A stretch of 64,000 bases of DNA from Myxococcales bacterium. GTDB lineage: Bacteria > Desulfobacterota > Binatia > HRBIN30. A program made the translations under genes and the position numbers. Below the pieces are notes generated by a model. That model had not been told where the DNA came from and did not search any database. It saw only the letters and a program-made list of their open reading frames with translations. Shown here one piece after another: positions 36,750-55,362 of this stretch (position 1 is the stretch's first letter; each line of letters starts with the position of its first letter). Location: positions 64,001-128,000 of the forward strand of contig JBBILD010000008.1 of NCBI GenBank assembly GCA_037445065.1, in the 5' to 3' direction.

Positions 36750-36767
36750 AGTGAGGCCAGAGCCACA

Positions 36768-38384
36768 ATGCAGAGTAGGGTGTGGAAGTCAGGCGACCCT
36801 TTCATTTGGCTTGCCGCAGGAGCGCTGGGGACCGCCCTGTTGATGATCGGCGGGCTGTTCTGGCTCATCATTACCCGAGCCCTAGGTGTCTTCTGGCCGG
36901 CGGAACTCGTACTGCTCGAGCTTCGCACGGGAGAGCGATTCCTCGGCCACATTGGCGCCGTCGAGGCGAGTCCGGATCCGGAAAACAGCAAGACTCTGGT
37001 CAGGAGAATCCAGGTGCAAGTGGCCAACCGGGATCTGTCTTCCGCAGACTTTGTGTGGATCGATGAGGACCAGATTGCGAGCCGCACCCGGCCCACCGAT
37101 GCCATCGTCGTGGAACGCCAGGAATGGGGCAACCTTTTCGGGTGGTTGGTGGCTGTGACCGAGGATGGCGAGCCCATCGCCCAGGGAAGCGAACAGAGTT
37201 GGCAAGTCTTACAACAAATGCTTCCGCAGGTGGCAGCACAGAGAGGCAGAATTCGCCGGCTCGAGCAGCGGCAGCTTGGGGATATCAACTACCGAATGGA
37301 ACAGACTCGCCTCGAGATGAAGCGTTACGAACTGCGCGGGGACGACGCTGGCGCGCTCCAGGGTGTTCGCGAGCGGCTGACCCGGCTGCAAGCAGAGTAC
37401 GAGCAAGTGTATGCCCGACTCGAAGCCATGAAGCGGGAGGCGCAGCGCACGGTGGCGGTGTTTCAAACGGCCAGTGGGCAGGAAAAAAGCGTCCCTCTGG
37501 TACAAGTCGTTCGCGCATACTGGCCCAACCAAATGTCTACCTGGCAGAAGGTGCGTTTGTATTGCGCCAAGTTTTGGGAGTTTGTGAGCGGCGAGCCGCG
37601 CGAATCGAATACCGAGGGCGGAGTGTTCCCGGCGATTTTTGGAACCGTGCTCATGGTGCTGATCATGAGCTGCGCGGTCGTTCCCTTTGGAGTGCTTGCT
37701 GCGCTGTATCTGCGTGAGTATGCGCGCCAGGGGCCGGCGGTGCGCCTCGTCCGGATCGCCGTGAACAACCTGGCAGGCGTGCCCTCGATCGTGTTCGGCG
37801 TGTTCGGCTTGGGTTTTTTCATTTACTCGGTGGGCGGCAGCATAGACAGTTGGCTTTTCGCGGAGCGGCTGCCAACCCCGACCTTTGGGACAGGTGGAAT
37901 CCTGTGGGCGTCCCTCACGCTTGCGCTGCTCACGGTTCCGGTCGTAATCGTTGCTACCGAAGAGGCGCTTGCGGCTGTGCCCCGTGAACATCGCGAGGGC
38001 TCGCTTGCGCTCGGGGCCACGAAGTATGAGACGATCCGCAACGTCGTCTTGCCGAGTGCGCTGCCTGGAGTGTTTACTGGGTTGATCTTGGCCATGGCTC
38101 GTGGTGCCGGTGAAGTGGCTCCCCTCATGATCACCGGTGTTGTCAAGCTCGCCCCGAGCCTGCCGCTCGATCATCATTGGCCGTATTTGCACCTGGATCG
38201 GAAGTTCATGCACCTCGGTTTCCACATCTACGATGTCGGGTTTCAATCGCCGAACGTTGAAGCCGCTAAACCGATGGTGTACGCAACCACACTGTTATTG
38301 GTGAGTATTGTGGTATTCTTGAATCTTACAGCGATCTTTCTGCGCGCGCGGATTCGTAAACGCTTGCACGCCGGCGCTTTCTGA
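36768..38384 (+). CDS. pstA: Phosphate ABC permease PstA with periplasmic coiled-coil insert
   Basis: [37 protein letters not shown]. Confidence 0.96.
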
Positions 38385-38395
38385 GCGGGCCATTC

Positions 38396-39268
38396 ATGAA
38401 AGTGGGAAACCCAGGGGCCACGTTAAGCTTTCCTGTTTCCGACCGGGTTGTGCGCGAGCGCGTCTCGGAAGAAGGGCTAACGCAGGCGTTGGCGTCGAGG
38501 GGCGAACTCCCCGACGCGATTTTAAGCGTGCGGAACCTTTCATTGAGTTACGACGGACAGCATTGGGCGTTGCAAGACATTTCCCTGGATATCCCGCGCC
38601 ACCGTGTCACCGCGTTTATTGGCCCCTCCGGATGTGGCAAATCCACCCTTCTCCGCTGCTTTAACCGTTTGAACGACTTGATCGACGGAGTGCAGATTCG
38701 GGGTATGATCAACCTGGATGGGATGAACATTTACGATCCCAGGTTGGCCGTTACTTCGTTGCGCAAGCGCGTGGGCATGGTTTTCCAAAGGTCCAATCCA
38801 TTTCCGAAATCCATCTACGACAACGTGGCATACGGGCCGCGTCTGAGCGGCAGCCGCAATCGCCGCGAGCTGGATGAGATCGTAGAGCGAGGCCTGCGAG
38901 CGGCGGCTTTGTGGGACGAGGTCAAAGATCGGCTCGACGATAATGCCTTGAGCTTGTCTGGAGGCCAACAGCAGCGATTGTGCATCGCTCGCGCGCTTGC
39001 CGTGGAACCCGAAGTCCTCTTGATGGACGAGCCTTGCTCCGCGCTGGATCCGATTGCGACCGCAAAAATCGAGGCCCTCATTCACGAACTCAAGGGGCGG
39101 TATACGATCGTTGTGGTCACGCACAATATGCAGCAGGCTGCGCGCGTCTCCGATTACACTGCGTTTTTGTACCTCGGGCGCTTGGTGGAGTACGGTGCCA
39201 CGGATAAAATCTTCACGAATCCAGATCAAAAGGAAACGGAAGATTACATTACTGGCCGCTTTGGCTGA
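38396..39268 (+). CDS. pstB: Phosphate ABC ATPase
   Basis: [39 protein letters not shown]. Confidence 0.98.
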
Positions 39269-39288
39269 GTAGGGACGAGGAGAACGGC

Positions 39289-39978
39289 TTGCCGCAGCGC
39301 GCGCACACCGACCCGCACTTCGACGAAGAGCTGAGAAAGTTGCACGAGAAGCTTCTCGAGATGGGGGGCTTAATCGAAAACCAGATCGCCACAGCATTGG
39401 ACGCACTCGTGCAGCGAGACGATAGCCTTGCGCGGCTGACCATCGAGCAAGACCATGCTGTCAATCGGCTCGATGTAGAGATTGATGATATGTGCTTGCG
39501 TTTGCTCGCGCGTTACCAGCCGGCTGCCCGCGATCTTCGCTTGATTACGACTGCGCTGAAAATCACCACGGATATGGAACGCATTGGCGACATGGCAGTG
39601 AACATGTGCGAGCGGGCGTTGGAACTCAATCAGGAGCCCCCGCTGAAACCGTTCATTGACATCCCTCGCATGGTGGACATCGCGTTGGGAATGTTGCGGG
39701 AGAGCTTGAACGCCTTTGTCAGGGAGGACGTGGAACTGGCGCTCAAGGTGTGCCGCGATGACGATCAAATCGATGCCCTGACTCATCAGGTCTTTCGCGA
39801 ACTGCTCTCCTACATGATGGAAGACCCGCACTCGATCACTCGAGGGATTCGCTTGATGTTCGTGGCGAAGTATATCGAGCGGATCGCGGATCACGCGACC
39901 AATATCGGTGAGATGGTTGTGTTCATGGTGAAGGGAAAAAGCATCCGCCACTTGGATCGGATTCCCCCCTCGGTTTGA
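39289..39978 (+). CDS. phoU: Phosphate signalling protein PhoU
   Basis: QPAARDLR, ERIGD, ERIADHATNI; TTG start with GAGGAG SD. Confidence 0.97.
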   Translation: MPQRAHTDPHFDEELRKLHEKLLEMGGLIENQIATALDALVQRDDSLARLTIEQDHAVNRLDVEIDDMCLRLLARYQPAARDLRLITTALKITTDMERIGDMAVNMCERALELNQEPPLKPFIDIPRMVDIALGMLRESLNAFVREDVELALKVCRDDDQIDALTHQVFRELLSYMMEDPHSITRGIRLMFVAKYIERIADHATNIGEMVVFMVKGKSIRHLDRIPPSV

Positions 39979-39984
39979 GTTGTC

Positions 39985-40752
39985 ATGGGTGCGAGTGCGT
40001 CGAGTCGTAACTCAGTTGGCCCGGTCGCAAGACCCCGACCCCATATTTTAGTGGTCGAGGACGAACCGGACCTGGCGGAGTTGATTCGCTTCCATCTCGA
40101 GCAAGAAGGCTTCGCTGTCCGGGTTTGCGGAGCGGGAGACGTCGCCTTGGAAGAAGCGCGCCGCAGCCGCCCCGATGCCGTTTTGCTGGATTTGCTGTTG
40201 CCGGGAATCTCCGGCCTGGAGGTTTGCCGACGGATTCGAACCGACGCGCGGTTGGCAACGGTACCCGTGATCATGGTGACGGCGAAGGCGGACGAAGCGG
40301 ATCGGGTTATCGGCCTCGAGCTCGGTGCGGATGATTACATCACCAAACCGTTTAGCCCACGCGAACTTGTGGCTCGGGTACGCGCGGTTCTGCGGCGCGC
40401 ATACGCCGAGCAGCCAGCGCGCGCTCCTGACGTTTACGAGCGGGGTTGGTTGCGAGTGGACTTCGACCAGTACGAGGTCCAAGTTGCCGGGAAACCCGTA
40501 GAACTCTCGCGCAAGGAGTTCGAACTGCTCCGGTTTTTCCTTCGCCACCCGAATCGCGTGTTCGATCGCTTGCAGATCCTCGACTCCGTTTGGGGAGAGG
40601 ACACCCATGTCGAGGTGCGGACCGTGGACGTGCATATTCGCCGCCTGCGTCTACTGTTGGAAGAGGAACCGACCCCTCGCTTACTCGTGACTGTACGTGG
40701 TGTCGGTTATAAGCTCGATGAACGAGCTCTAGACCGGCCGCGGAATTCTTAA
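39985..40752 (+). CDS. phoB: OmpR-family response regulator PhoB
   Basis: VVEDE, LLDLLLP, GADDYITKPFS, RTVDVHIRRLR, TVRGVGY; context. Confidence 0.93.
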   Translation: MGASASSRNSVGPVARPRPHILVVEDEPDLAELIRFHLEQEGFAVRVCGAGDVALEEARRSRPDAVLLDLLLPGISGLEVCRRIRTDARLATVPVIMVTAKADEADRVIGLELGADDYITKPFSPRELVARVRAVLRRAYAEQPARAPDVYERGWLRVDFDQYEVQVAGKPVELSRKEFELLRFFLRHPNRVFDRLQILDSVWGEDTHVEVRTVDVHIRRLRLLLEEEPTPRLLVTVRGVGYKLDERALDRPRNS

Positions 40753-40798
40753 ATCGGTATTGCCTGCACTGGCTGCGAGGCAAAGCGGCGGACAAGAA

Positions 40799-42094
40799 GT
40801 GACTCCTCTCGAAATTGCATTGAGCGTACTTTGCGCGGGTTTGGTTGTGCTCGGATGGCGGACGTATCGTTTGGTTCGCTCGCTCGACCAAGGCCTCGCC
40901 AGTGTGCTCGACCGAGGCAGTCGCTTCGCAGTCTTGCCGCGGCGGCACTTGGTGCTGTCGCCGCTCGAGAGGAAGATACAGCTCGTCTTAGAGTCTTTTG
41001 AGCAACGCCTCGCCGAGGCGCAAAGGGAGCAAACCTGGTTTCGCGCAACTGTGCAGGCGATGCAGGAAGGGGTCCTGGTCCTCGACGAGCAAGGCGAGGT
41101 CCTCATGATGAACCCTGCCGCAGGCCGCTTGTTGCAAGTCGAGCAGGCGATCGAGGGGAAGACCTTGATCGAGGTGTGGCGAGAGCCTGCGGTGTGGGAG
41201 ATGGTCAAAGAATCGCTTCAGGCCGATCGCCGAAGCGAGGTTGAGATCGAAGCTGCGCCTGGTAGGCGGTACGTGCGAGTCAGCGCCAACTCGGTTCCTA
41301 CCGGTGAGCAAAGGCTCGTCTTATTGGTGTTGCGCGATGTGACCGCTGAGCGCCGTCTGGAGCAGATGCGGCGGGATTTTGTAGCCAATGTGTCCCATGA
41401 ACTCCGGACACCCTTGGCGGCGATTCAAGGATATGCCGAAACCTTATTGGAAGGTGCATTAGAGCGGCCGGATTCAGCGCGCCGATTCGTCGAGGTGATT
41501 GCTCGGCATGCCCGTCAACTGGCCCGCTTGGCTGAAGATCTGCTGACGTTATCGAACCTTGAGCTTGGGCGTACCCGGCTCGAGATCGGGCCGTGTGAAA
41601 GCGGAGCCGCGGTGGCAGACGCAGTGGAGGCTGTGAGCGCTTTGGCTCGCTCGCGAGAAGTGCACGTGGTGGTTGACTGCCCTTCGCCCTCTCCCACGAT
41701 GCTCGCAGACCCGGATCGGGTTCAGCAAATCTTGGTCAATCTGCTGGATAACGCCATTAAATATTCCCCGCAGGGGGCGACTGTCACCGTTCGAATCCGG
41801 GAGGTCAGCGAGGCTGCTGGTACTCATTTACTTGCCACAACCCCGGTTGGCCGCTGGGTGGAGATCCTGGTCGAAGATCGTGGGGAAGGAATTCCGAGCC
41901 GCGACTTGCCGAGAATCACCGAGCGCTTTTACCGAGTGGATCGAGCCCGCTCCCGCGCCAGCGGCGGGACCGGACTTGGCCTCGCCATTGTCAAGCACTT
42001 GCTACAGCTTCACGGGGGTGCCCTGCGCATCGAGAGCGAACTGGGCCACGGTACGCGCGTGAGCGCGTACCTGCCCGCAACTTTGGGGAATTGA
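40799..42094 (+). CDS. phoR: Sensor histidine kinase PhoR (PAS)
   Basis: DFVANVSHELRTP, NLLDNAIKY, ERFYRVD, GGTGLGLAIVKH; start 40760 or 40799. Confidence 0.93.
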   Translation: MTPLEIALSVLCAGLVVLGWRTYRLVRSLDQGLASVLDRGSRFAVLPRRHLVLSPLERKIQLVLESFEQRLAEAQREQTWFRATVQAMQEGVLVLDEQGEVLMMNPAAGRLLQVEQAIEGKTLIEVWREPAVWEMVKESLQADRRSEVEIEAAPGRRYVRVSANSVPTGEQRLVLLVLRDVTAERRLEQMRRDFVANVSHELRTPLAAIQGYAETLLEGALERPDSARRFVEVIARHARQLARLAEDLLTLSNLELGRTRLEIGPCESGAAVADAVEAVSALARSREVHVVVDCPSPSPTMLADPDRVQQILVNLLDNAIKYSPQGATVTVRIREVSEAAGTHLLATTPVGRWVEILVEDRGEGIPSRDLPRITERFYRVDRARSRASGGTGLGLAIVKHLLQLHGGALRIESELGHGTRVSAYLPATLGN

Positions 42095-42241
42095 CACGAG
42101 AACATCCCCTGCCCAGCAAAGACGGAGGCGGGGTTGCAGCCTAGCTTTTTGGAGCTGCACCGCGCAGACCGGGCCAAACCCCGATTCGTGCAGGTTGGAA
42201 CAGTCGCTCGGTGTAGTGCCGGTGCGACGGAGCGCTTGACG

Positions 42242-42257
42242 TGGAACGGAAGGTGCT
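42242..42257 (+). promoter_or_regulatory. Putative sigma54 promoter of hsp20 cluster
   Basis: TGGAACGGAAGGTGCT has GG-N10-GC spacing with two mismatches to consensus; overlaps a weak TTGACG..TACTTC. Confidence 0.45.
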
Positions 42258-42322
42258 TACTTCCCTTGCGTCGTCGCGCCAAGAAACGCGAGGCAAAAAC
42301 GATGAGCAAAGGAGGGATTGAT

Positions 42323-42778
42323 ATGGCCCGATGGGATCCGTGGCAGGAGATGGAAGCGCTGCGGCGCGAAATCGATCGTGCCTTCGAAAGCGCGGGGTTT
42401 CGTTTCCCGTCTTTATTGCGCACGAGCCTATGGCCGGCACGGGGCGAGCGAGGATTTCCCCCGGTCAACGTTTATGAAGACAAGGACAATTTCTATGTAA
42501 GCTTGCTCGCGCCTGGCTTGGAACCGCATTCCATCAATTTAAGCGTACTACGCAATAGTCTCACTGTTTCGGGCGAGCGGGCGCCTCAGGGGACGGGGAA
42601 GTTCGAGGCAGTCCACCGTCAGGAGCGCCCGGCGGGCAAGTTTTCTCGCCGCATCGAGCTTCCGGCTGAAGTGGACGAGAGCAAAGCCAGGGCTGAGTAT
42701 CGAAACGGAATTTTGACCGTCACCTTGCCCAAGGCTGCTCAGGCCAAGCCCAAGGAAATCACCGTTCAGGTAGGCTGA
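42323..42778 (+). CDS. Small heat shock protein (Hsp20) 1
   Basis: AAGGAGG SD; WDPW, FPPVNVYE, FSRRIELP, AEYRNGILTVTLPK, C-terminal ITV motif. Confidence 0.95.
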   Translation: MARWDPWQEMEALRREIDRAFESAGFRFPSLLRTSLWPARGERGFPPVNVYEDKDNFYVSLLAPGLEPHSINLSVLRNSLTVSGERAPQGTGKFEAVHRQERPAGKFSRRIELPAEVDESKARAEYRNGILTVTLPKAAQAKPKEITVQVG

Positions 42779-42813
42779 GGAAGCAACCGACCCATCGAGA
42801 GGAGGAAATCACC

Positions 42814-43212
42814 ATGGCAGAGAAAGCGGTATCTGCAACTGCAGCACAAGCACCGGGAAGGACGCGAGAGGCTACGCGTGCGGAGGATCGTTATGTGGCT
42901 CCCGCAGTGGACATTTACGAGACGCCAGAGGAGTTGGTGCTCCTCGCGGACTTACCTGGCGTAGGCAAAGATGAACTCGATGTCCGAGTGGAGGAAGATG
43001 TGCTCACCATCCGGGCGCTGAGCAAATATCCGGCCCCCGGCGAAGTGTTGTGGGAAGAGTTTGAGCTCCCCAATTACTTCCGCCAGTTCGAGTTGAGCGA
43101 GGCGATCGATCAGGAAAAGATCAGCGCGGATTTTAAAAACGGCGTGCTGACCTTGCACTTGCCGAAATCCCAGAAAGCTCGGCCGCGACAGATCGAGGTT
43201 AAAGTTTCGTAA
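42814..43212 (+). CDS. Small heat shock protein (Hsp20) 2
   Basis: PAVDIYET, ADLPGV, YFRQFEL, NGVLTLHLPK, IEV. Confidence 0.95.
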   Translation: MAEKAVSATAAQAPGRTREATRAEDRYVAPAVDIYETPEELVLLADLPGVGKDELDVRVEEDVLTIRALSKYPAPGEVLWEEFELPNYFRQFELSEAIDQEKISADFKNGVLTLHLPKSQKARPRQIEVKVS

Positions 43213-43214
43213 GA

Positions 43215-43255
43215 TTCAGCATGCAGGGGGGCTCTCTGCCTTCCTGCATGCTGGA
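43215..43255 (+). other. Strong intergenic stem-loop (mRNA stability or partial terminator)
   Basis: TTCAGCATGCAGGGGGGC-TCTCT-GCCTTCCTGCATGCTGGA, 18-bp stem with G-U pairs, no U tract. Confidence 0.65.
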
Positions 43256-43270
43256 AACAGGGGGTACGCG

Positions 43271-43738
43271 GTGAACGGATGGTTGCCCGCACAGTGGGTG
43301 CAAAAGCTCAAAGATCTGCGCACTGGAGTGGAGGGAGCGTTACGGCGGTGGTTTCAGCGCTACGTGGAACACTCTACCTCGCCCGGGCCAGTGCAGATCA
43401 CTAGGAAGGATGTCTGGGGCTGGCCTACGATTGACCTAGAGGACTACCCGGATCGCTTGGTGGTGAGAGCGGATATTCCAGGTCTCGAACCGGAGGACAT
43501 TCGGATCGAATTACTCGGCGATACGCTGGTCCTTCGGGGGGAGAAAAGGAGAGAACAGGAAAGCCGGGCCGATGGATACTTCTACTCTGAGCGCTGGTAC
43601 GGTGCTTTCGTGCGCCACCTCGCGTTGCCGGTGCCTGTGCGAGCGGATGAGGCGTCTGCGCGCTATCGAAGCGGACAACTGGTGATCGAGCTGCCCAAGC
43701 AGACCCCTGCTACGCGCGTCCCCATCCGCGCTGTCTGA
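43271..43738 (+). CDS. Small heat shock protein (Hsp20) 3
   Basis: WPTIDL, ADIPGL, SERWYGAFVRHLALP, ARYRSGQLVIELPK, VPI. Confidence 0.9.
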   Translation: MNGWLPAQWVQKLKDLRTGVEGALRRWFQRYVEHSTSPGPVQITRKDVWGWPTIDLEDYPDRLVVRADIPGLEPEDIRIELLGDTLVLRGEKRREQESRADGYFYSERWYGAFVRHLALPVPVRADEASARYRSGQLVIELPKQTPATRVPIRAV

Positions 43739-43853
43739 AGTCGGAGCGCCTCCCTGCAGGTCGGGCGAGTTTACAGTTCGAGCTGCACGGAGAGAGACTT
43801 CCGCGCAGGCTTGCAGGGTGTCGACCCGTGCTGCAGGGGAGGATTGCGTCACC

Positions 43854-44699
43854 ATGAGCTTTAGCGATGTTTTTTGGGTCTTCTTTATCGTTTCTGCGCT
43901 CCAGCCTGTGTTGCGCCAGCGGCTGCTGGAAGCATCCCGCCAGCGCTTGCTGGCACGCATCGAGCGAGAACGCGGGTCCCGAGTCATCTTGCTGGTCCAT
44001 CGCCAGGAAACCATGAGCCTGCTCGGCTTTCCGGTGATGAGGTACATCGACATCGAAGACGCCGAGGCGGTTATGCGAGCTTGCGAACTGACCGACCCGG
44101 AAGTTCCCCTGGACATTGTGCTGCACACTCCCGGAGGGTTGGTGCTTGCGTCCTTGCAGATTGCCCGCGCGCTCCGGCACCACAAGGGCAAGGTCACCGT
44201 GTTTGTTCCCCATTACGCGATGTCGGGAGGTACACTCATCGCCTTGGGCGCGGATGAAATCGTGATGTCGCCACACGCGGTTCTGGGCCCTGTGGACCCG
44301 CAACTGGGGCAATACCCGGCTGCCTCGCTCCTCAAGGTGGTTCGAGAGAAGCCGGTTGCTGAGGTTGACGATCAGACGCTGATCCTCGCGGATGTGGCGG
44401 AGAAGGCGATTCGGCAGGTGCGCGACAGCGTCACGGAGTTGCTTACGCGTACTCAGACTGCTGAGCGCGCTTCGGAGCTGGGCGAGATCCTTTCGACCGG
44501 AACCTGGACCCATGACTTCCCGATTACCCTCGAAAAAGCTCGAGAACTCGGCCTGCCGGTGCGGCAGGATATGCCCGCTGTGATCCTGGAGCTGATGGAA
44601 TTGTATCCGCAGCCGGTGCGTAGAGCCCCCGCCGTGGAGTTTTCTCCCGAGCCGCGCCGCGCCGACCGCGCCGCGAGGTCGGATGTCTTACTTCGTTGA
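43854..44699 (+). CDS. SDH-family ClpP-fold serine protease
   Basis: LHTPGG, PHYAMSGGTLIAL, LGPVDPQ, WTHDFPI. Confidence 0.9.
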   Translation: MSFSDVFWVFFIVSALQPVLRQRLLEASRQRLLARIERERGSRVILLVHRQETMSLLGFPVMRYIDIEDAEAVMRACELTDPEVPLDIVLHTPGGLVLASLQIARALRHHKGKVTVFVPHYAMSGGTLIALGADEIVMSPHAVLGPVDPQLGQYPAASLLKVVREKPVAEVDDQTLILADVAEKAIRQVRDSVTELLTRTQTAERASELGEILSTGTWTHDFPITLEKARELGLPVRQDMPAVILELMELYPQPVRRAPAVEFSPEPRRADRAARSDVLLR

Positions 44700-44747
44700 G
44701 CCAAGCGCGCCAGCGCTCTCGGCGAGAAAACGAGGTCAAAAGCGAGA

Positions 44748-45401
44748 GTGGTGAACGGAGTCGTGGAATATGCGGTGCTCGCGCTGAGCACCTTGTTCGT
44801 GATTGTCGACCCCATCGCCGTGGTGCCGGCGTTTCTGGCAATGACGCCGGATGACCCGCCAGCGGTGCGCCGCCGCACCGCGCGGCTCGCCTGCACTGTA
44901 ACCGCAGGTGTCCTGCTGGCGTTTGCTCTCCTGGGAGACTGGATCCTCCGTTACTTGCGGATCACGCCCGCTGCGTTTCAGCTTGCTGGGAGCCTTCTGC
45001 TTTTGCGCATCGCGCTGGATATGCTGCACGGGCGCCGCTCCGAAGCACAGGAAACCAACGAAGAGGTCTTGGCTGGCGCAGCCAAGCAGGAGATTGCGAT
45101 TAGCCCGCTGGCGGTGCCGATGATGGCCGGGCCAGGCGCGATTTCCATGACTCTGATCCTGGCCAATCAAGCCAGTACGGTTTTCCACAAAGCCGTACTG
45201 CTGACTGCAATTGCTTCGGTGAGTGCTGCAAGTTACGCGATTTTCTTGCTCGCGATTCGGGGCACGCACCGTTTGAGTCCAGTGGCGTTAAAACTGACCA
45301 GCCGCTTGATGGGACTTTTGTTGGCGGCCGTAGCAGTCCAGTTTGCCCTGGATGGTTTCGCTCAGGCCGGTCTGTCCCTACAAGCGCAACAATCCGGCTG
45401 A
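44748..45401 (+). CDS. MarC-family membrane protein
   Basis: LFVIVDP, PLAVPMMAGPGAI, RLMGLLLAAVAVQF. Confidence 0.93.
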   Translation: MVNGVVEYAVLALSTLFVIVDPIAVVPAFLAMTPDDPPAVRRRTARLACTVTAGVLLAFALLGDWILRYLRITPAAFQLAGSLLLLRIALDMLHGRRSEAQETNEEVLAGAAKQEIAISPLAVPMMAGPGAISMTLILANQASTVFHKAVLLTAIASVSAASYAIFLLAIRGTHRLSPVALKLTSRLMGLLLAAVAVQFALDGFAQAGLSLQAQQSG

Positions 45402-45419
45402 GGCAAAGGAGAGAAACTC

Positions 45420-46493
45420 ATGGCAGAGGAAGCCAAGGAGCTGACTCAGTTTTCCTGGAACCTGGTGACCCGAAACCTGATCGGTCACCCACTGTTACGC
45501 AAGCAACTTTCCCGGCGGGTACAAGCGCTCGGCAAGCTACTGCGTCATTACCCACCCGACGGAGTCCACTTGCACGTGCTGTTGGAAAAGAATCCGCACC
45601 GCGATTTGTTCACTGCTACCCTCACCCTACGTCTACCACGCCACATTTTGCATACGGAAAAAACTGCGCACGAGCCGATTCTTGCGCTCGACAAAGCGTT
45701 TAAAGCCTTGGCCCGTGAGATCGACAAACTCAAGGCGCACCAGCGACGTGAGGAGGAGTGGAAGCGCAAGGAGCGACGCGAGCGCCTGCATGTGCTCAAA
45801 GCCACCGGGTTTGCCAGCGAGCCGCTTCCTGAAAGCGAAGGGCCGCAAGATCGCTTGGCTGTGGTGGTTGACTTCCTGAAACGACACTACAGGCGCATGC
45901 TCGAGCATGTGCAGCGGCACATTCGGCACGATGAATGGAGTGGCGAAATTCCCCCGCATGCTGTGGACGCGCGCGGGGTAGTCGACGAGGTGGTCCGGAA
46001 GGTTCTGCGGGACTGGCGGCGGAAGCCCGCTGACACCGGGTGGCTGGTGTGGTTTTTTCGCCTCATCCACGAAGAGTGGGAGCGCAGGCGCCGAGAATTT
46101 CGCCGCGCCGCCCAGGAGCGGGTATCGGTAGATACTGACGTGAAGCGGCCCGACGAGGAAGACCTGACGGCGGGATTCGATGCGGAGCAACCGCTGGACA
46201 TCATTGTCCGCGAATATGAGCCAGTTCTCACCGAGCTGCGGGAACTCGTCCCTGATCCCAGTGCTCCCTCGCCAGAGGAAGAGTTGCAACGTCGAGAACT
46301 GCTGCAAAGCCTGCAAAAGGCCATTCAGGAGTGGCCGCGGTTGGAGAAAGACGTCTTCGAACTGTACTTCGCTCAGGGATTCGATGAGAGCGAGGTTGCC
46401 CAGATATTGCGGCTGGACGTGGCGAGAGTGCGCGAGGCGGTCGCCAAAATCCAGCAGCGTATCCGTATCCTTTTGTTTACCGGACAGGCGTAA
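45420..46493 (+). CDS. HPF/RaiA-like domain fused to ECF-type sigma70 domains 2 and 4
   Basis: AAGGAG SD; N-terminal beta-alpha-beta3-alpha pattern ending ALDKAFKALAREIDKLK; DARGVVDEV..WFFRLI; AIQEWPRLEKDVFELYFAQGFDESEVAQIL. Confidence 0.72.
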   Translation: MAEEAKELTQFSWNLVTRNLIGHPLLRKQLSRRVQALGKLLRHYPPDGVHLHVLLEKNPHRDLFTATLTLRLPRHILHTEKTAHEPILALDKAFKALAREIDKLKAHQRREEEWKRKERRERLHVLKATGFASEPLPESEGPQDRLAVVVDFLKRHYRRMLEHVQRHIRHDEWSGEIPPHAVDARGVVDEVVRKVLRDWRRKPADTGWLVWFFRLIHEEWERRRREFRRAAQERVSVDTDVKRPDEEDLTAGFDAEQPLDIIVREYEPVLTELRELVPDPSAPSPEEELQRRELLQSLQKAIQEWPRLEKDVFELYFAQGFDESEVAQILRLDVARVREAVAKIQQRIRILLFTGQA

Positions 46494-46534
46494 ACTACCG
46501 GTCGCAGGAAGCATCAGGGCGCATACCAGAGAGT

Positions 46535-48235
46535 TTGGCTGCCGAAGCGTTTATCCTGGTGGCCTCGAGCGCCCTGGGAGTGCTGGTGTGTGCTCGCTTC
46601 CGCGTTCCCGTGATCCTCGGGTACTTGCTGGCTGGCGCTGTTGTCGGCCCGCACGGTGCCGGGCTTGTGGGGGATACGCCGGGGGTAGCATTTCTGGCTT
46701 GGCTCGGTGTCTTGTTCTTGCTCTTCACGATTGGGCTCGAGTTTTCCTTGGCCAGTCTACGGAGCGCTCGGCGCACCGTGCTCCTCGCGGGCGGGCTGCA
46801 GGTAACACTGACCACTGCAGTGGCTGCAGCCGGCGCGTTCCTTGCCGGACTCGAGTTAGAAGCAGCGCTGGTGATCGGTGGCGCCCCCAGCATGTCCTCC
46901 ACTGCACTGGTTGCAAAACAGTTGGCCGACCAAGGCGAGTTGTTTACCCACCACGGGCGAGCTGCGGTCGGGATTCTTCTGTTCCAAGAGTTGGCCACCC
47001 TACCGTTTTTGACCCTCGTTGGTGCACGGGCTGCGACGGGCAGTCCGGAGGGAAACTCGTTAGTTGCTGCGCTGGGATGGACGACGGTGAGTTTTCTGGT
47101 CATCGGCTTGTTCGGTCGCCCGGTTTTGCACCGCCTTCTGGGATTTGTCGCGCGAACTCGATCGAATGAGCTGCTGCTTCTCACCACGATTTTATTGGCG
47201 CTGGGCAGCGGCTTTGGACTGCATGCCGTAGGCGTACCCCCTTTGTTGGGCGCTTTCCTGGTCGGAATGATCCTCGGGGAGAGCGACTTTCGCTTTCAGA
47301 TCCAGGACGATTTGCGGCCGTTCCGCGAGACTCTGCTCGGCCTGTTTTTTGTGACCGTGGGGATGACCATTGACTCCGCAGTCATCCTCGCGCATTGGCC
47401 GGTTTTATTGGTTACGTGTTCGTTCTTAGTGCTGGGGAAAGTGGCGTTGCTGGTGTTGCTCGGCCTTCTGCTCGGTTGGACGAGGGCGATGGCACTCCGC
47501 ACCGCAGTGATCCTCGCACATAGCGGCGAGTTTGGCTTGCTTTTGTTGACGTAGGCTACCCATGCTCGCATGATCGAGCTGCAAACCGCGCAGCCTCTGT
47601 TGGGTGCCATGGTATTGAGCATGGCACTAGCGCCATTGCTGATCGCAAGGAATGAATCACTCGTGCACGGCCTGTTTTCTGCTCGCCGCACTGGCACAGA
47701 AGCGGAGCAGGAAGCTTGGCTTACGCGCGAAAGCGAAGCGCTGCAAGGGCACGTGCTGCTGCTCGGGTGCGGGCGGGTCGGTAGGCAAGTCGCTGCGGTG
47801 CTGGAAGCCGCAGGTGTGCCGTACATCGCGTTTGAGAATGACCCAGCAAGCTTCCAGGTTGCCAAGCACCAGGGGTACCGTGTGGTCTTGGCCGATGCGG
47901 GACGCTTGCGTTTGCTCGATGCGGCGGGCCTCAGCCGCGCCCGCCTCCTGGTGGCCACCTTTAGTTACGGAAGGCTGATTGAACGTATCCTACACCACGC
48001 GCGGCAGGTAAATCCCGCGATTCAAACGCTGGTGAGCGCCGCCGATGAAGCGGATTTGGCGCAGCTTGCGAGGGCCGGAGCAACTGCGGTTTTTCCCGAA
48101 AATTTGGCAGCCGGGCTTGCTTTGGGGAACCAAGCCTTGCTCCTGCTCGGCCGCTCGCACGAGGAGGCAGCCCGGGTTGTCACCGAATTGCGCGCTTTGC
48201 TCAATCCTGAGCTGGAGGGACACCTCGGGCTTTGA
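46535..48235 (+). pseudogene. Kef-type cation:proton antiporter (CPA2 plus TrkA-N) interrupted by in-frame TAG at 47552-47554
   Basis: ORFs 46535-47554 and 47570-48235 share a frame; GEFGLLLLT*ATHARMIELQTAQPLLGAMVLSM reads as one continuous Kef sequence; LLGCGRVG KTN motif. Confidence 0.82.
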
Positions 48236-48376
48236 TCTGCCCTGCGCCCCGCACGTTGACTTATCGCCGGGAAAAAACGAAACGATGCTTCTTGTGGGTG
48301 ACAGGACCGGCTTTCGCGCGGAGGCCGAATGCTCCCATGTTGCACGTTACAGAACATTGCTCGTGAGGGAGTCTAC

Positions 48377-49048
48377 ATGGAAACACGCGACCGCCGAATC
48401 GTGCTCATCGCTCCGCCCGGGGCAGGAAAGAGCACGCAAGCAACGCGCCTAGCGCAAGAGTTTGGGATCCCATGGATCTCTACCGGGGAATTGCTTCGCG
48501 CCGCTGTCCGGGAAAACAGCTCACTCGGGCAGCAGGCCCGGTCATACATGGAGAAGGGAGAGATGGTGCCGGATGACGTGGTCATCGCCCTCGTTCGGGA
48601 TCGCTTACAGCAGGCAGATTGCCAGCAGGGGTTTATTTTGGACGGCTTCCCGCGCACCGCTGTGCAGGCTCAAGCCTTGCGGGCCGCTGGTGTAGGGCTC
48701 GACTACGTCATCGAGCTAGAACTGGACGAACAAGAAGCAGTGCTTCGCTTGAGCGGCAGGCGCGTGCACCCAGCTTCGGGCCGCGTCTACCATGTGGTGT
48801 TTCAACCTCCGAAAGTTGCGGGCAAGGACGATGAGACCGGTGAGGATTTGGTCCAGCGCGAGGACGATCGAGAAGAGGCGGTACGAACCCGGCTGCGCGT
48901 CTATCGCCAACAAACAGAGCCGGTCGTCGCATTTTACCGGGAGTGGTCCGCGACAAACGGTCCCGGAGCGCCCCTGTTTTGCAAGGTGAGCGCCGCAGGC
49001 AAACCGGAAGAGGTGGGTGAGAGACTCCTGGCAATCCTGCGCGGCTGA
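48377..49048 (+). CDS. adk: Adenylate kinase (long, zinc-free LID)
   Basis: APPGAGKSTQA, ISTGELLR, GFILDGFPRT, GRRVHPASGRVYH, QREDD. Confidence 0.96.
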   Translation: METRDRRIVLIAPPGAGKSTQATRLAQEFGIPWISTGELLRAAVRENSSLGQQARSYMEKGEMVPDDVVIALVRDRLQQADCQQGFILDGFPRTAVQAQALRAAGVGLDYVIELELDEQEAVLRLSGRRVHPASGRVYHVVFQPPKVAGKDDETGEDLVQREDDREEAVRTRLRVYRQQTEPVVAFYREWSATNGPGAPLFCKVSAAGKPEEVGERLLAILRG

Positions 49049-51167: not shown

Positions 51168-53177
51168 ATGGGAAAGGGATACCGGGGCTTGTTCTTGGTG
51201 CTTAGCTGTTGCGCGTTGGGGTTAGCGGGTCTCACCGCCAGAGCCTCGGCGGAATCTTGCGACAACGGCTCGTTTTCGAGCACGTTTGAGCTCATCCAAA
51301 AGGCGATTTTCGAAAACTCAGGGTGCACGAACCAAGTCTGCCACGGCGAAGCCCGTGCCGGTGGGCTCGACCTCCGTGAAGGTCAGTCGTACGCGCAACT
51401 GGTGGACGTGGACGCGACCACGGTGCCTGGTGCGAAACGGGTCGTGCCAGGGCGTCGTGATCTCAGCCTGTTGTTCACCAACGTGGCTGCCAAGACCTTG
51501 CCTGGCCAGTACCGAGCCCCGTTGCGGCCGATGCCACTCGATCCGTTGCCCGCACTGAGCTTGGATCAGCTCGAGGCTCTGCGCCGATGGATCGAGGCAG
51601 GTGCGCCAGCCACGGGCGTGGTCGCCGGCACCGCGGAATTGTTGGACGCTTGCTTGCCGCCGCCGGAGCCGATCGCGATCAAACCGCTCGATCCGCCACC
51701 GGCGGGGACCGGTATCCAGTTGCGCATGCCCCGGTACGTTTTGGCTCCTCACTCCGAGCGCGAGACTTGTTTCGCCAGCTACTACGACGTCAGTGATCAG
51801 GTACCGCCAGAATTCCGCGGGCCAGATGGCAACACTCTCCGCTACTGGCGCAACGAGATCCGCCAGGATCCGCTCAGCCATCACCTGATCGTCAGCCTTT
51901 ACGCTGGCAACGCCTCGCCAGACGACCCTGCGTGGGGCCAGTTCTTCTGCCGGGGAGGGGAGCGCGATGGCCAGCCTTGCCGGCCTACGGACCTGGCGTT
52001 CTGCGGCGAGGGCATTTGTTCGACCACCCCGGTGAACAGTGTTGCGTGCATCGGCTTTGGCCCTCAGGATGCCGATTTGGGACTCGCCACTGCGGGCTTT
52101 ACGGGAACTCAAGAAACGGCCTCCGAGTTCAATTTTCCTCCAGGTGTGTACCGCGAAATCCCCATTCGCGGCATGGTCATTTGGAATTCTCATGCGTTCA
52201 ATTTGACCGACCAGCCTGGGAAACTGGAGGCCTGGCTCAATTTTGAATTCGCCCCGCCCGAGCGGCAAATCACGCCAGCACTGCAAATTTTCGATACCCG
52301 CACGATCTTCAAGATGACGTCGGTACCCCCCTTCCAAACGAAAGAGGTGTGTAGCCACTACGAGCTCCCTCGCTTCTCGCGTTTGTTCGAGTTGAGTTCT
52401 CATGCGCATAAACGCATGAAGCGATGGCGAACCTTCGAGGGCAAATTCGAGTGCCAGGCCCCCGAAGGACACCCGGCGCGGGGCCAGGCGTGTGAGCCCC
52501 TGGGCTACGACTTCACCAGCCCGGATGTGTGTGCTGGCTACCCGTGCAAGGCCTTCAAGCGAGTGAGAAGCGGTGACTGTGACGAAGACAATACCGTCAC
52601 GGTTGATGAGCTCGTCCGGGCCGTGAATATCGCCCTCGAGAGCCGCGAGATCGGTCGCTGCGTGGATGCCGATGTTGACGACAACGGAAGCGTTACGGTT
52701 GAAGAGATCGTTCGCGGCGTGAAGGCCGCACTCAATGGAGTGCCCGCTCCCTTGGAACGGGATCCGAATGACAGCCTACTGTATGTGAGCCTCATTTATA
52801 ATGACCCGGTGGTGCTGCGCTTCGACCCGCCACGGAAATACGATGCAAGAACAGCCTCGGAGCGGACGTTTACGTATTGCGCGCTTTACGACAATGGTTT
52901 CACTGACCCAGCCGAGGTCAAGCGTAAGTCAACCTCACCTACACCCCCAGTTCCGATCCCTGGGATCGGTGGGCCGTGCCAGGCGCCCACCCACTGCGTG
53001 CGAGGGAAAGTGGGCTCCCCCTGTTCTGGCAACAACGACCGGCAGCGGAATGCTTCCTGTGATTCCGCCGAAGGCGCGGGTGATGGTCTGTGCGATGCCT
53101 GCCCACTCACAGGAGGGGTCACCACGGAAGACGAGATGTTCATCTTGATGGGCCAATACTTCGTCCAGGAGCCCTGA
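51168..53177 (+). CDS. Secreted protein: CX4CH cytochrome c-like domain plus PHM/DBH-like copper monooxygenase fold with dockerin-like insert
   Basis: GAGG SD; signal peptide ending ASA; CTNQVCH...PMP..WIEAGA; SHH, NSHAFN, SSHAH, TTEDEM; GDCDEDNTVTVDELV / DVDDNGSVTVEEIV. Confidence 0.7.
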   Translation: MGKGYRGLFLVLSCCALGLAGLTARASAESCDNGSFSSTFELIQKAIFENSGCTNQVCHGEARAGGLDLREGQSYAQLVDVDATTVPGAKRVVPGRRDLSLLFTNVAAKTLPGQYRAPLRPMPLDPLPALSLDQLEALRRWIEAGAPATGVVAGTAELLDACLPPPEPIAIKPLDPPPAGTGIQLRMPRYVLAPHSERETCFASYYDVSDQVPPEFRGPDGNTLRYWRNEIRQDPLSHHLIVSLYAGNASPDDPAWGQFFCRGGERDGQPCRPTDLAFCGEGICSTTPVNSVACIGFGPQDADLGLATAGFTGTQETASEFNFPPGVYREIPIRGMVIWNSHAFNLTDQPGKLEAWLNFEFAPPERQITPALQIFDTRTIFKMTSVPPFQTKEVCSHYELPRFSRLFELSSHAHKRMKRWRTFEGKFECQAPEGHPARGQACEPLGYDFTSPDVCAGYPCKAFKRVRSGDCDEDNTVTVDELVRAVNIALESREIGRCVDADVDDNGSVTVEEIVRGVKAALNGVPAPLERDPNDSLLYVSLIYNDPVVLRFDPPRKYDARTASERTFTYCALYDNGFTDPAEVKRKSTSPTPPVPIPGIGGPCQAPTHCVRGKVGSPCSGNNDRQRNASCDSAEGAGDGLCDACPLTGGVTTEDEMFILMGQYFVQEP

Positions 53178-53308: not shown

Positions 53309-53539
53309 ATGGGGCGAACAAGCCGCGGAAAAAAGCAAAGGAAGGACCGGAAGACGTGCCGCCTTTGCGGCGAGAGGCCGGCAAAGTACCGCTACAGGGA
53401 TCGCGTTCGGTACGACCCGCGACATGATTTGTGCTTTGCGTGCTGGCGGTCAACCCGCGATCGAGCGCGCGTGTTGCCGCCGCATACCCGGGTCGTCGAA
53501 GAGCCAGCGACCGAGGCAGTAGCCCGAATGACCGCGTAG
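53309..53539 (+). CDS. Small basic Cys4 zinc-finger-like protein
   Basis: CRLC-X21-CFAC with HDL before the second pair; TTGCAC-18-TAGTCT just upstream. Confidence 0.62.
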   Translation: MGRTSRGKKQRKDRKTCRLCGERPAKYRYRDRVRYDPRHDLCFACWRSTRDRARVLPPHTRVVEEPATEAVARMTA

Positions 53540-53973
53540 CCTCATGGCGCTACGCAGCATCGGGACTCGATCTCCGTGCCCTCGGTGTTCGCCCTGCCCC
53601 CGCGCGGAAGAACTGGCTGATGAGGGTACGGAACCGGCGGCCTGGGGACGAGCGTAGCCGTTTGTGTGCACCGCGGTTGACCGTATCTCCGGTAGCTCGG
53701 GAGCGCTCCCCTCTCAGGTCTCGCCCTACGACTTGGCCGCGGGAGGTGGCGAAGAATGGATTGCTCCCGTTGCCCCACTCGCATCACTGCCGTGGCCGCG
53801 AAGTACATCACCCCTCAACCCGGGAGCATCGAGCACAGCCCGAGCGGGCAGTGCTTCGCTCCGGGTGGAGATGCGCAAGGCTCGGCTCGAGCAGTCTTGC
53901 GGCTTTGAACGGGCAAGTACGGGCAAGCCCAGGATCGTTGCTGGTGCGGGCCCGCGAAGTCTCGGACTCGCGG

Positions 53974-55362
53974 TTACATGTGCCGGATCACCGCTTCACC
54001 GAATTCCGAGCACTTCACCTTGGTTGCCCCCTCCATCAGGCGGTGGAAGTCGTAGGTCACGGTCTTGGCCGCAATCGCTCCTTCCATGCCTCGGATGATA
54101 AGGTCGGCGGCTTCGTTCCAACCGAGATGGCGGAACATCATCTCCCCAGAAAGGATCACGGACCCGGGATTTACCATGTCGAGGTTCGCATATTTCGGTG
54201 CGGTACCGTGCGTCGCCTCGAAGATTGCGTGCCCCGTGACGTAATTGATGTTGCCCCCCGGGGCGATTCCAATCCCTCCGACTTGCGCGGCAAGGGCGTC
54301 CGACAAGTAGTCCCCGTTCAGATTCAGTGTGGCGATCACATCGAAATCCCGCGGGCGCGTGAGCACTTGCTGCAGGGTGATGTCGGCAATGCTGTCGCGA
54401 ATGAGGAGCTTTTCCTTCCACTTGCCATTGCCGTGGCTAGCCCATAGCGCGAGCGCTGCCTCGACTTCGGCGCGAACCTTCGCCTGCTGTTCTGCCGTCA
54501 TCATGTCGTAACCAGGATCAATGGCGCGCGCGTTTTCCTCGATGCTGAGATTAGGATTTTGTTCCTTGTTGGCGAGAATCCAGCTCTCCCGCTCGGTAAC
54601 GATGCGATCACGAAATTCTCTTTTCGCCAAAGCATACCCCCAATCACGAAAGGCCCCCTCCGTGAACTTCATAATGTTGCCTTTGTGCACGAAGGTCACG
54701 CTACGCCGCCGGTAACGCAGGGCGTATTCGATCGCGGCCCGAACCAGCCGTTCTGTCCCTTCGCGAGACACTGGCTTGACGCCGATCGCGCTGGTTTCCG
54801 GGAAGCGGATTTTCCGCACCCCCATCTCTTCCTGCAAAAACTGGATGACCTTTTTCACTTCGGCTGAGCCGGCTGGCCACTCAATCCCGGCGTAAATGTC
54901 TTCTGTGTTTTCCCGGAAGATCACCATGTCCACCAGCTCGGGGTGTTTGACTGGGCTGGGTACGCCGGGGAAATACCGGACCGGGCGCAAGCACACGTAC
55001 AGGTCTAGCAATTGCCGCAGCGTCACGTTGAGCGACCGAATCCCTCCACCCACAGGGGTGGTAAGCGGCCCTTTGATTCCAACCACGTAATCCTGGAACG
55101 CTTGTACGGTTTCGTCCGGCAGCCAGGTGCCGAGCTGATTGAACGATTTTTCTCCTGCCAGCACCTCCATCCAAGCGATTTTCCGCTTCCCTCCATACGC
55201 TTTCGCCACCGCCGCATCGAATACCTTTTGACTTGCCCGCCAAATGTCAGGGCCAGTGCCATCTCCTTCGATAAATGGAACGATCGGTTGGTCCGGCACC
55301 TCTAACTTGCCAGCGACGCAGCGAATCTTTTCTCCGGCAGGAACTTTGAGCCAGCTTGCCAT
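53974..55362 (-). CDS. icd: NADP-dependent isocitrate dehydrogenase (homodimeric)
   Basis: [57 protein letters not shown]. Confidence 0.98.

Follow-up and report, generated by a model that had tools for sequence, protein, structure and literature searches.

Can the state of the translation machinery be tied to the transcription machinery within one polypeptide? The question is raised by a gene in a 64,000-nucleotide stretch of DNA from a Myxococcales bacterium (GTDB lineage Desulfobacterota; Binatia; HRBIN30), namely positions 64,001 to 128,000 of contig JBBILD010000008.1 in assembly GCA_037445065.1; the whole stretch is called the window below, and positions are its own. A first-pass annotation, made from the letters alone, described the open reading frame (ORF) at 45420..46493 (+) as a ribosome hibernation domain of the HPF/RaiA type fused to a sigma factor resembling those of the extracytoplasmic function (ECF) class. 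If both halves work, this protein would make such a tie, and we know of no characterised factor that does so. Our analysis confirmed that an HPF-type domain and a small ECF-type sigma domain are joined here in one polypeptide, as a genuine and conserved fusion.

A conserved fusion of two modules

The ORF lies exactly where the ORF list places it, on the + strand, and encodes 357 amino acids plus a stop. Its start codon is ATG, and a Shine-Dalgarno-like AAGGAG, read from the sequence, stands 8 nt upstream (45406..45411, +). A word-indexed search returned 45 clusters, nearly all of 340–370 amino acids and with 94–99% query coverage, whose source names are sometimes 'HPF/RaiA family ribosome-associated protein' and sometimes 'sigma-70 family RNA polymerase sigma factor'. 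At E <= 0.001 an exhaustive search returned 598 representatives, of which 222 remained at 1e-10 and 60 at 1e-30. Two alignments were used in this study, one of 114 full-length homologues (320–410 amino acids) and one of 33 sequences; conservation spans both modules and peaks in the linker between them. Because the 114 homologues, from several phyla and sources, align end to end with the same order and length, an assembly, frameshift or sequencing artefact joining two adjacent genes is practically impossible; such an artefact would sit badly with a linker that is the most invariant stretch of the protein, the frame is uninterrupted in 40 further genomic loci, and no evidence favouring an artefact was found.

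Verrucomicrobiota, Binatia and Acidobacteriota all have full-length copies, which are also carried by proteobacterial plasmids. The commonest ESM Atlas clusters with both domains belong to Verrucomicrobiota (196 members), Acidobacteriota (83 and 55) and Bacteroidota (52). A species-genome collection yielded 40 full-length loci, mostly from Verrucomicrobiota, including the cultured Limisphaera; others are from Binatia, and a few carry the label Acidobacteria, Methylomirabilota or Ignavibacteria. Among 201 sampled genomes of the window's own phylum, six have a full-length copy and four more an HPF-like match only.

The fusion is a paralogue that stands beside the canonical HPFs of the same genome. 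Three matches to the Pfam family Ribosomal_S30AE (S30AE below) are present in the window's own assembly: a long HPF at 81.3 bits, a short form of 106 amino acids at 47.6 bits, and the fusion at 30 bits. The long HPF, of 181 amino acids (L001:1495-2040; locus numbers are ours, followed by positions within the locus), matches solved long HPFs at 1e-19 to 1e-16, and its surroundings (L001:16-2878, contig C2) show the textbook order rpoN, long hpf, ptsN-like, HPr-like. Stand-alone HPF-like proteins of 119–136 amino acids with the family signature F-x-A-D-S-V/I-H-L ... H-L-P were also seen (L011:1459-1869 and L013:1498-1857), one of them encoded directly 3' of a gene for an NtrC-type sigma-54 activator (L011:34-1410); such proteins may be the unfused ancestor of the family.

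The N-terminal HPF/YfiA pattern noticed in the first-pass annotation was borne out. The HPF-fold domain (45444..45743, +) matches S30AE (PF02482) over residues 26–107 at 27.1 bits, above the cut-off of 23.7; 104 of the 114 family members match it at E <= 0.001, and the family profile matches Listeria HPF at 6.5e-14. An AlphaFold2 model built on the 114-homologue alignment (mean predicted local distance difference test score, pLDDT, 86.7; predicted template modelling score, pTM, 0.78) has strands at residues 9–18, 50–57, 64–71 and 76–83 and helices at 24–40 and 86–108, which is the HPF topology. The domain superposes on Vibrio cholerae HPF (4hei_A) with Z 13.3 and a root mean square deviation (rmsd) of 1.3 A over 92/92 residues, and on 6h4n_x with Z 13.0 and 1.7 A over 95/95 residues; Foldseek target TM-scores to HPF/YfiA structures are 0.80–0.87. 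Pfam matched no long-HPF C-terminal dimerisation domain in the fusion, residues 146–355 having a sigma fold instead.

In Staphylococcus aureus HPF, K27 and R30 of helix 1 and K84 and R87 of helix 2 are reported as conserved basic residues; the quadruple mutant loses ribosome binding, and K84 is important for dimer formation (PMC4889938). Mapped by alignment to Escherichia coli YfiA, and through the genome's own long HPF to S. aureus HPF, these residues fall on A36, K39, A96 and R99 of the fusion. Lysine or arginine stands at positions 36, 39, 96 and 99 with frequencies of 0.80, 0.80, 0.02 and 0.82 among the 114 sequences, at positions 105 and 109 with 0.92 and 0.84, and at 115, 116, 119 and 120 of the basic tail with 0.75–0.83. 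Because these frequencies are high across the family, we consider the basic character of the HPF module to be under selection. R99, K105 and R109 of helix alpha2 are invariant in the 33-sequence alignment.

The second module has the ECF layout, that is, sigma2 and sigma4 without sigma3. The NCBIfam model TIGR02937 (sigma70-ECF) matches residues 152–349 at 45.8 bits (cut-off 42.9), covering model positions 6–162 of 165, and residues 146–355 superpose on the EcfG-type sigma factor 5uxx_A with Z 14.6 and rmsd 3.2 A over 149/160 residues. Residues 145–233 (45852..46118, +) form a sigma2-like domain of three helices (145–174, 184–197 and 208–233 in the AlphaFold2 model), divergent by sequence and assigned from TIGR02937 and the 5uxx_A superposition. 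The acidic linker that the first-pass annotation had placed between sigma2 and sigma4 is indeed present, at residues 234–284 (46119..46271, +); it is long, holds no globular domain and is modelled with low confidence (pLDDT 52–73), and E256, Q257, P258, D279 and P285 are conserved in the 33-sequence alignment. The sigma4 helix-turn-helix called in the same annotation also held up (residues 285–357; 46272..46490, +). The family profile matches region 4 of solved ECF sigma factors at E 1e-15 to 1e-12, the model fits 3mzy with rmsd 1.1 A over 71 residues, and W305, E314, L315, G320 and E325 are invariant in the 33 sequences. Pfam Sigma70_r4_2 scores residues 296–339 at 22.6 bits, just under its cut-off of 25.7, and matches 88/114 members.

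Residues 109–144 (45744..45851, +) join the two modules and comprise a basic tail (W114, K115, R116, R119, R120) and a docking linker (F131, A132, P135, G141, P142, Q143), drawn from conservation and a complex model; W114, R116, R119, R120, F131, A132, P135, G141 and P142 are invariant in the 33-sequence alignment. For the complex model, residues 1–112 were folded against residues 126–357, each with the family alignment. The ipSAE score is 0.72 (0.70, 0.72 and 0.72 in the separate runs), the best of three controls reaching 0.01; the mark used is attained by 116/157 solved complexes and 2/215 mismatched pairs, a calibration that is rough for a custom alignment such as this. The runs agree on >=97% of contacts, and the pLDDT of the partners is >=84. 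The modelled interface sets residues 126–152, 207–209 and 322 against beta1, alpha1 and beta2–4: residues 126–136, 138 and 140–145, the conserved F-A..P...G-P-Q motif, run along beta1 and alpha1, and residues 147–152 of the first sigma2 helix pack on the HPF sheet, with neither helix alpha2 nor the basic tail taking part in the predicted interface. The model supports an HPF domain docked on its own linker and on the first sigma2 helix, with the basic alpha2 exposed.

Protein-quality-control clusters and the tLST island

The genomic context, absent from the first-pass annotation, is the most informative part of the present results. In the window the fusion is the sixth gene of a co-directional run with gaps of 19–80 nt. 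The run begins with three small heat-shock protein (sHsp20) genes (42134-42778, 42814-43212 and 43271-43738; together 42134..43738, +; Pfam HSP20, 61–75 bits), the first of which probably starts at the ATG at 42324, to judge from an AGGAGG before this ATG and from conservation of the start in two Binatia relatives. An SDH-type ClpP-like serine protease (43818..44699, +; PF01972, 364.7 bits) and a MarC membrane protein (44748..45401, +; PF01914, 160.5 bits) come between these genes and the fusion, and a KefB-like cation/proton antiporter (46535..48235, +; Pfam Na_H_Exchanger and TrkA_N) lies directly downstream at a distance of 42 nt. No intergenic terminator-like site was found in 42000–48600, where a scan for consensus promoters and terminators gave nothing above shuffled sequences.

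Neighbours were compared in 41 loci, namely the window and L014–L053 (L054, a match to residues 291–349 only, was dropped). Neighbouring ORFs of >=80 amino acids were grouped by all-against-all BLASTP, with Pfam supplying the names of the clusters; only clusters common to >=4 loci were labelled, so that the counts are lower bounds. At least one chaperone or protease gene is present in 32 of the 41 loci, and five of the other nine are contigs of <8 kb. The neighbours include sHsp20 (25/41 loci, 47 copies), DnaJ-like proteins (19/41), MerR_2/CbpM-like proteins (11/41), HtrA (8/41), FtsH, Rhomboid and an unknown 128-amino-acid protein (7/41 each), ClpB (6/41), MarC, the SDH protease and a baeRF/Host_attach protein (5/41 each), and Lon, GrpE, an M50-CBS peptidase and thioredoxin (4/41 each). 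Nearly all conserved neighbours are on the same strand as the fusion. These data show that the fusion family is embedded in protein-quality-control clusters across several phyla.

The DnaJ-like and MerR_2-type neighbours look like a CbpA/CbpM pair, which we take to be a co-chaperone and its modulator (L016–L019, L021–L023, L028, L030 and L038); with FtsH directly upstream, as in seven loci, the layout resembles the control of sigma-32 by DnaJ and FtsH. The baeRF family 12/10 or Host_attach protein, of 150–190 amino acids, is encoded upstream of the fusion and on the same strand (L015:5315-5773, L028:5869-6387, L030:5073-5648, L032:6486-6965 and L049:6525-7010). Its gene abuts the fusion in four of these five loci, an M50 peptidase gene intervening in L015. 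The protein is too short for Balon but shares with it a superfamily of release-factor-like proteins that bind the ribosomal A site. A figure legend of the Balon paper places Balon genes next to Hsp20, DnaJ, HdeD, MarC, RaiA and 'alternative sigma70 factors' (PMC10901736); the label 'host attachment protein' for Balon homologues is not borne out by that paper (0 occurrences).

A relative of the fusion is found in the transmissible stress-tolerance locus (tLST), also called the heat-resistance locus (LHR), of E. coli and Klebsiella. A tblastn search of plasmids with the window protein gave nothing at 1e-3, and two distant family members used as queries matched 174 and 99 plasmid records. Hosts for the first of these queries include Klebsiella (70), Acinetobacter (31), Enterobacter (19) and Escherichia (3); Brucella anthropi, Cupriavidus, Burkholderia and Paracoccus are also among the plasmid hosts. 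On the Klebsiella pneumoniae plasmid NZ_CP056855.1 the match is a 381-amino-acid 'hypothetical protein' flanked by hdeD-GI and trx-GI, in the order hsp20, clpK, hsp20-GI, yfdX1, yfdX2, hdeD-GI, the matched ORF, trx-GI, kefB-GI, psiE-GI and a trypsin-like peptidase gene. Since this position is that of orf11 in the tLST papers, we identify the ORF as orf11, which those papers describe as a protein of unknown function with <30% identity to anything functionally known. Profile alignment of the family with orf11 by hhalign (99.7%, E 6.1e-26, 311 columns, residues 37–357 against 30–350) shows, at the level of sequence comparison, that orf11 belongs to the HPF-sigma family; Pfam alone gives orf11 a faint region-4 signal (E 0.026) and no S30AE match. 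The DNA of orf11 is present in 152 of 5426 complete E. coli genomes, and 11 of the 12 E. coli records listed call it 'hypothetical protein' and one 'RNA polymerase sigma factor'. The homologue on Brucella anthropi pOANT01 bears a sigma-70 family annotation and is flanked by an FtsH/AAA-ATPase pair on one side and HdeD on the other, with PsiE, three Hsp20 genes, YfdX1/2, TrxC and an antiporter nearby.

Over 342 aligned positions, the window antiporter and KefB-GI share 43% identity. On account of the orf11 homology, the sHsp20 genes and this likeness to KefB, we regard the window cluster as an environmental relative of tLST. The two have in common sHsp20 genes nearby, the order fusion then KefB, and a full-length homologue; the sequences are very divergent, and of the island gene set the window holds only the three sHsp20 genes, the fusion and the KefB-like gene, ClpK, YfdX, HdeD, Trx and PsiE being absent from the genes scanned. 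The family is a regular part of protein-quality-control clusters over a range that extends from Verrucomicrobiota and Binatia to plasmids of Proteobacteria.

The HPF-sigma architecture itself has been described previously, and automatic annotation already sees both domains. The text of a preprint (bioRxiv 10.1101/2025.11.04.686544) reports HPF variants without the dimerisation domain that carry fused Csp, SigE or CBS parts, treats these chimeras as isoforms of HPF found alongside canonical HPF and in variable stress loci, and notes that they are also plasmid-borne, with 'a SigE-HPF fusion' on E. coli pEc78 as an example. These 'SigE-HPF' chimeras resemble the window protein in architecture, in the coexisting canonical HPF, in the stress locus and in the plasmid copies of the family; the preprint text contains no experiment on them and no link to tLST orf11 or to sHsp/protease clusters. 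The first-pass annotation's statement that no characterised example is known thus stands for experiments but not for the architecture, which is in this 2025 preprint and in IMG names such as 'sigma24 family protein/ribosome-associated ...'. Two ECF reviews (PMC7826278, main text and one supplement; PMC8999054) make no mention of ribosomes, S30AE or hibernation, a 2026 preprint on sigma domain fusions does not mention HPF-type ones, and we found no publication in which orf11 is recognised as an HPF-sigma fusion. Neither the link to orf11 nor the context across phyla nor the closed docking model was found in print, and these points thus appear to be new, with possible overlap in the figures or supplements of the 2025 preprint.

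Possible roles of the fusion

We tentatively favour a reading, possible rather than probable, in which both modules are active and the fusion links vacant ribosomes to the transcription machinery, being closed off the ribosome and open on it. It is favoured because basic positions of the HPF module are conserved and because alpha2 and the basic tail lie outside the predicted interface. The fusion would be made together with chaperones under proteotoxic stress. Its HPF module would bind the decoding region of vacant small subunits through the basic alpha2 and the basic tail, as HPF does, and a basic linker of ~20 residues would lead out of the subunit as in long HPFs, so that the sigma module would be displayed outside, able to bind RNA polymerase core or a sigma partner. 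In Thermus thermophilus HPF, basic residues of the N-terminal domain touch h30, h31 and h44, the linker leads to the anti-Shine-Dalgarno region, and the C-terminal domain sits at uS2, the docking spot of RNA polymerase on the 30S subunit (PMC6177447); a sigma module replacing that C-terminal domain would emerge near uS2. Off the ribosome, the HPF sheet would gain a strand from the conserved linker motif, and the first sigma2 helix would pack on this sheet. Control might run in any of three directions: idle ribosomes might sequester the sigma module, ribosome binding might free it, or polymerase might be tethered to dormant ribosomes.

The more specific proposition that the whole family acts as a ribosome-gated transcription factor, whose HPF module reads the pool of vacant ribosomes during proteotoxic stress and in the process releases, sequesters or positions the sigma module, is on the unlikely side. 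If it were true, the family would provide the first direct physical link from ribosome hibernation to transcription initiation, and the unexplained orf11 of a clinically and industrially important island would be a ribosome-gated device.

The closest known systems share parts of this design. Long HPFs (S. aureus, T. thermophilus, Lactococcus lactis) have the same N-terminal fold, basic helices, a basic flexible linker of similar length and a second domain; this domain is a dimerising beta-alpha one, whereas that of the fusion is sigma2 plus sigma4, and the fusion lacks the first lysine of the KLERQ motif and has a linker predicted to fold back on the HPF domain. EcfG-type sigma factors (Bartonella quintana RpoE-NepR, 5uxx) and PhyR sigma-like domains are alike in having two domains, no sigma3 and a general-stress role; the fusion differs in its N-terminal HPF domain, in a linker of ~50 residues and in a sigma2 barely recognisable by sequence, and no NepR- or PhyR-type partner was seen near it. 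Archaeal HibA (HPF plus CBS) and S. aureus HPF-YwlG also have an HPF domain joined or bound to a non-ribosomal module, but, as reported, the partners differ from that of the fusion and neither is from the transcription machinery.

Several results weigh against, or limit, the coupling of ribosomes to transcription by two active modules, an idea that the first-pass annotation had put forward. On the HPF side, the yfiA equivalog model TIGR00741 scores the fusion at 23.6 bits, below its cut-off of 40.9; two of the four canonical basic residues are kept in this protein (K39 and R99, with A36 and A96 changed), and the K84 equivalent, with which the KLERQ motif begins, is lost across the family. In the closed model alpha1 and the sheet are covered, which may clash with the narrow HPF site unless the protein opens. 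On the sigma side, the three Pfam searches proposed in the first-pass annotation gave S30AE above its cut-off and Sigma70_r4_2 just below, but Sigma70_r2 does not match this protein and matches only 2 of the 114 family members, and a query with just the sigma2 piece retrieved no solved sigma factor. Because both the profile and the lone-piece search fail, sigma2 is assigned by the full-length profile and by fold, and the sigma2-like segment of the earlier description survives in these respects but not by its own sequence. The top structural matches of the sigma half are compact forms bound by anti-sigma factors: the modelled arrangement of sigma2 and sigma4 resembles 5uxx, 5wuq and 4cxf (Z 11.6–14.6), holoenzyme forms being ~26 A away in rmsd. 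We give this likeness little weight because predictors often return the compact state. PhyR sigma-like domains superpose as well, at Z 10–11.7. No promoter motif of the fusion's own sigma was recovered upstream of sHsp20, the fusion or HtrA, and the promoters found before sHsp20 are of the sigma-54 type. Finally, when all 13 functional genes were singly deleted in E. coli MG1655 lacZ::LHR, seven deletions lowered heat or chlorine resistance; orf11 was not among the seven, and membrane-lipid oxidation was also unchanged by its deletion (PMC8407380). This negative result speaks against orf11 being the island's master regulator, but a role in hibernation or fine-tuning is not called into question by it, since 5-minute kill assays would miss such a role.

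A rather unlikely alternative is that the protein is a sigma factor only, serving second-tier stress transcription after induction of the cluster, with an HPF fold that binds no ribosomes and acts as an N-terminal regulatory or DNA-contacting domain comparable to region 1.1/1.2 or to ECF N-terminal extensions. The model is consistent with this in that it predicts attachment of the HPF domain to the first sigma2 helix through the conserved linker motif; in holoenzyme structures the N-terminal regions of other sigma factors sit at this same helix. The TIGR02937 match spans both sigma domains above the cut-off, and the fold match at Z 14.6 points the same way. Regulatory N-terminal extensions of ECF sigma factors are known, as the review cited above describes (PMC7826278), and orf11 heads an orf11-trx-kefB-psiE block and overlaps trx-GI, a layout that by comparison would be typical of sigma-led operons. 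A pure packing domain, however, would have no need of HPF-type basic positions and a basic tail conserved outside the interface. Sigma2 is poorly recognised and atypical, and a plain sigma role is therefore not assured; the stretch of sigma4 before and within the recognition helix varies in the family, the searched upstream regions yielded no cognate promoter, and the orf11 deletion was without heat or chlorine phenotype.

We think it unlikely that the protein is a stress-specific hibernation factor only, in which the sigma half would be a scaffold, stabiliser or dimeriser in place of the dimerisation domain and would have lost contact with RNA polymerase, which is how the 2025 preprint, in its text, treats such chimeras by classing them as HPF isoforms in variable stress loci. 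The S30AE signature is the better conserved one (104/114 members, against 88 for r4_2 and 2 for r2), and a null result for orf11 in a 5-minute kill is what a hibernation factor would be expected to give, the phenotypes of such factors lying in long-term survival, as reported for S. aureus (PMC4889938). The baeRF/Host_attach gene near the fusion in 5/41 loci and the Hsp20, DnaJ, HdeD, MarC and RaiA neighbours reported for Balon (PMC10901736) would also suit this role. A mere spacer is hard to reconcile with the conserved sigma4 core (W305, P306, E309/R310, F313, L315, G320 and E325), which matches real sigma factors at 1e-15; moreover, the long-HPF C-terminal domain is absent, and the residue equivalent to the dimer-relevant K84 of S. 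aureus is lost.

That the sigma half is a PhyR-like mimic, which would not bind polymerase but would capture a small anti-sigma factor when the HPF module is engaged and so act as an anti-anti-sigma partner switch, is very unlikely. PF22233 (PhyR_sigma-like) matches 35/114 members and scores 13 bits here, the best structural match is a NepR-bound EcfG-type sigma factor, the PhyR domains superpose as well, and the sigma-like part is predicted to be held against a second domain as in PhyR; but the PF22233 matches are confined to the region-4 helices, a helix-turn-helix common to any EcfG-like sigma, and TIGR02937 is above its cut-off. Pfam finds no receiver domain (Response_reg) in the fusion, and no NepR-like gene is recognised next to it (ORFs of >=60–80 amino acids). 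The first-pass annotation was right that no anti-sigma gene is adjacent: there is none among the flanking genes (ORFs of >=60 amino acids), where the neighbours are MarC and the KefB-like antiporter, and no anti-sigma cluster is conserved across the 41 loci (ORFs of >=80 amino acids).

Promoters, leaders and flanking sequence

A promoter-like block, GCTTGACGTGGAACGGAAGGTGCTTACTT, lies upstream of the first sHsp20 gene (42234..42262, +) and is conserved in the window and two Binatia relatives, where it follows a relaxed -24/-12 pattern. Its GG-N10-GC spacing fits sigma-54, and its CTTG-N17-CTTAC arrangement, the consensus of sigma-32, equally fits a promoter of that type. In verrucomicrobial loci, sigma-54-type -24/-12 elements are found ~130–170 nt 5' of the first sHsp20 gene (L017:1860, L019:1868, L021:3687, L026:263, L031:3085, L032:5017(-) and L033:3090). 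The strict pattern TGGCAY-N5-YTGCW has ten matches in the 41 loci (~1.0 Mb, both strands), and seven of the ten fall within the 1.9% of positions that lie at -300 to +120 of an sHsp20 start. All five verrucomicrobial genomes tested have rpoN, and RpoH is above cut-off in 0/5; the window genome has rpoN, an RpoH-like gene at 302.7 bits (cut-off 323.1) and no HrcA that we could find. About 12 full-length matches to enhancer-binding proteins (17 in total) were obtained in the window genome, none beside the cluster, and no such gene lies within the clusters compared. Directly before the fusion gene no sigma-54-type element was found, and there is mostly no free intergenic space 5' of it; the lack of an element of its own is consistent with co-transcription with the sHsp20 run. 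Upstream of HtrA no clear motif was seen.

Two candidate motifs upstream of sHsp20 were rejected. The TGGAATCC words enriched in a k-mer and bipartite enumeration proved to be coding sequence for the conserved WNPF N-terminus, and the TTGA-N-CTTAC block of the window precedes sHsp20 only in the three Binatia loci, among 11 matches in ~0.5 Mb. A motif of ~28 nt around the palindrome ACTTAAGT (GAAAAACG...ACTTAAGTTACC) recurs in Chthoniobacterales/Udaeobacter loci without chaperone neighbours (L043:2785, L053:2427, L051:532, L045:6412 and 8040, and L047:1548), just 5' of the fusion gene and, in two loci, just 3' of it; an operator or promoter function is possible.

Several loci have a long 5' leader that separates the sigma-54-type element from the sHsp20 start (L017:1880-2005, L019:1890-2019, L021, L032 and L035), with a conserved GTTCGGGTGAGC-like hairpin and complementary GGCAGAC ... 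CAGTCTGC segments that end beside the ribosome-binding site. The leader could be an RNA thermometer. A search of 41900–46600 in the window with Rfam (E <= 1) gave a chance snoRNA-like match and no known RNA thermometer.

An in-frame TAG at 47552–47554 splits the antiporter gene of the window into a membrane part (46535-47554) and a TrkA_N part (47570-48235) in the same frame, unlike KefB-GI, which is a single protein of 570 amino acids; the TAG could reflect a pseudogene, a sequencing error or read-through. Two further ORFs of the window, at 51168-53177 (669 amino acids) and 53431-54447 (338 amino acids), had no Pfam match at the thresholds used. On the 5' side of the sHsp20 run, positions 34524-42094 hold a pstCAB-phoU-phoB-phoR phosphate block, seemingly unrelated to the stress cluster, that encodes a pair of large permeases of the PstC/PstA type, of which the first carries a beta-propeller insert, together with PstB, PhoU, a regulator of the PhoB type and a PAS histidine kinase.

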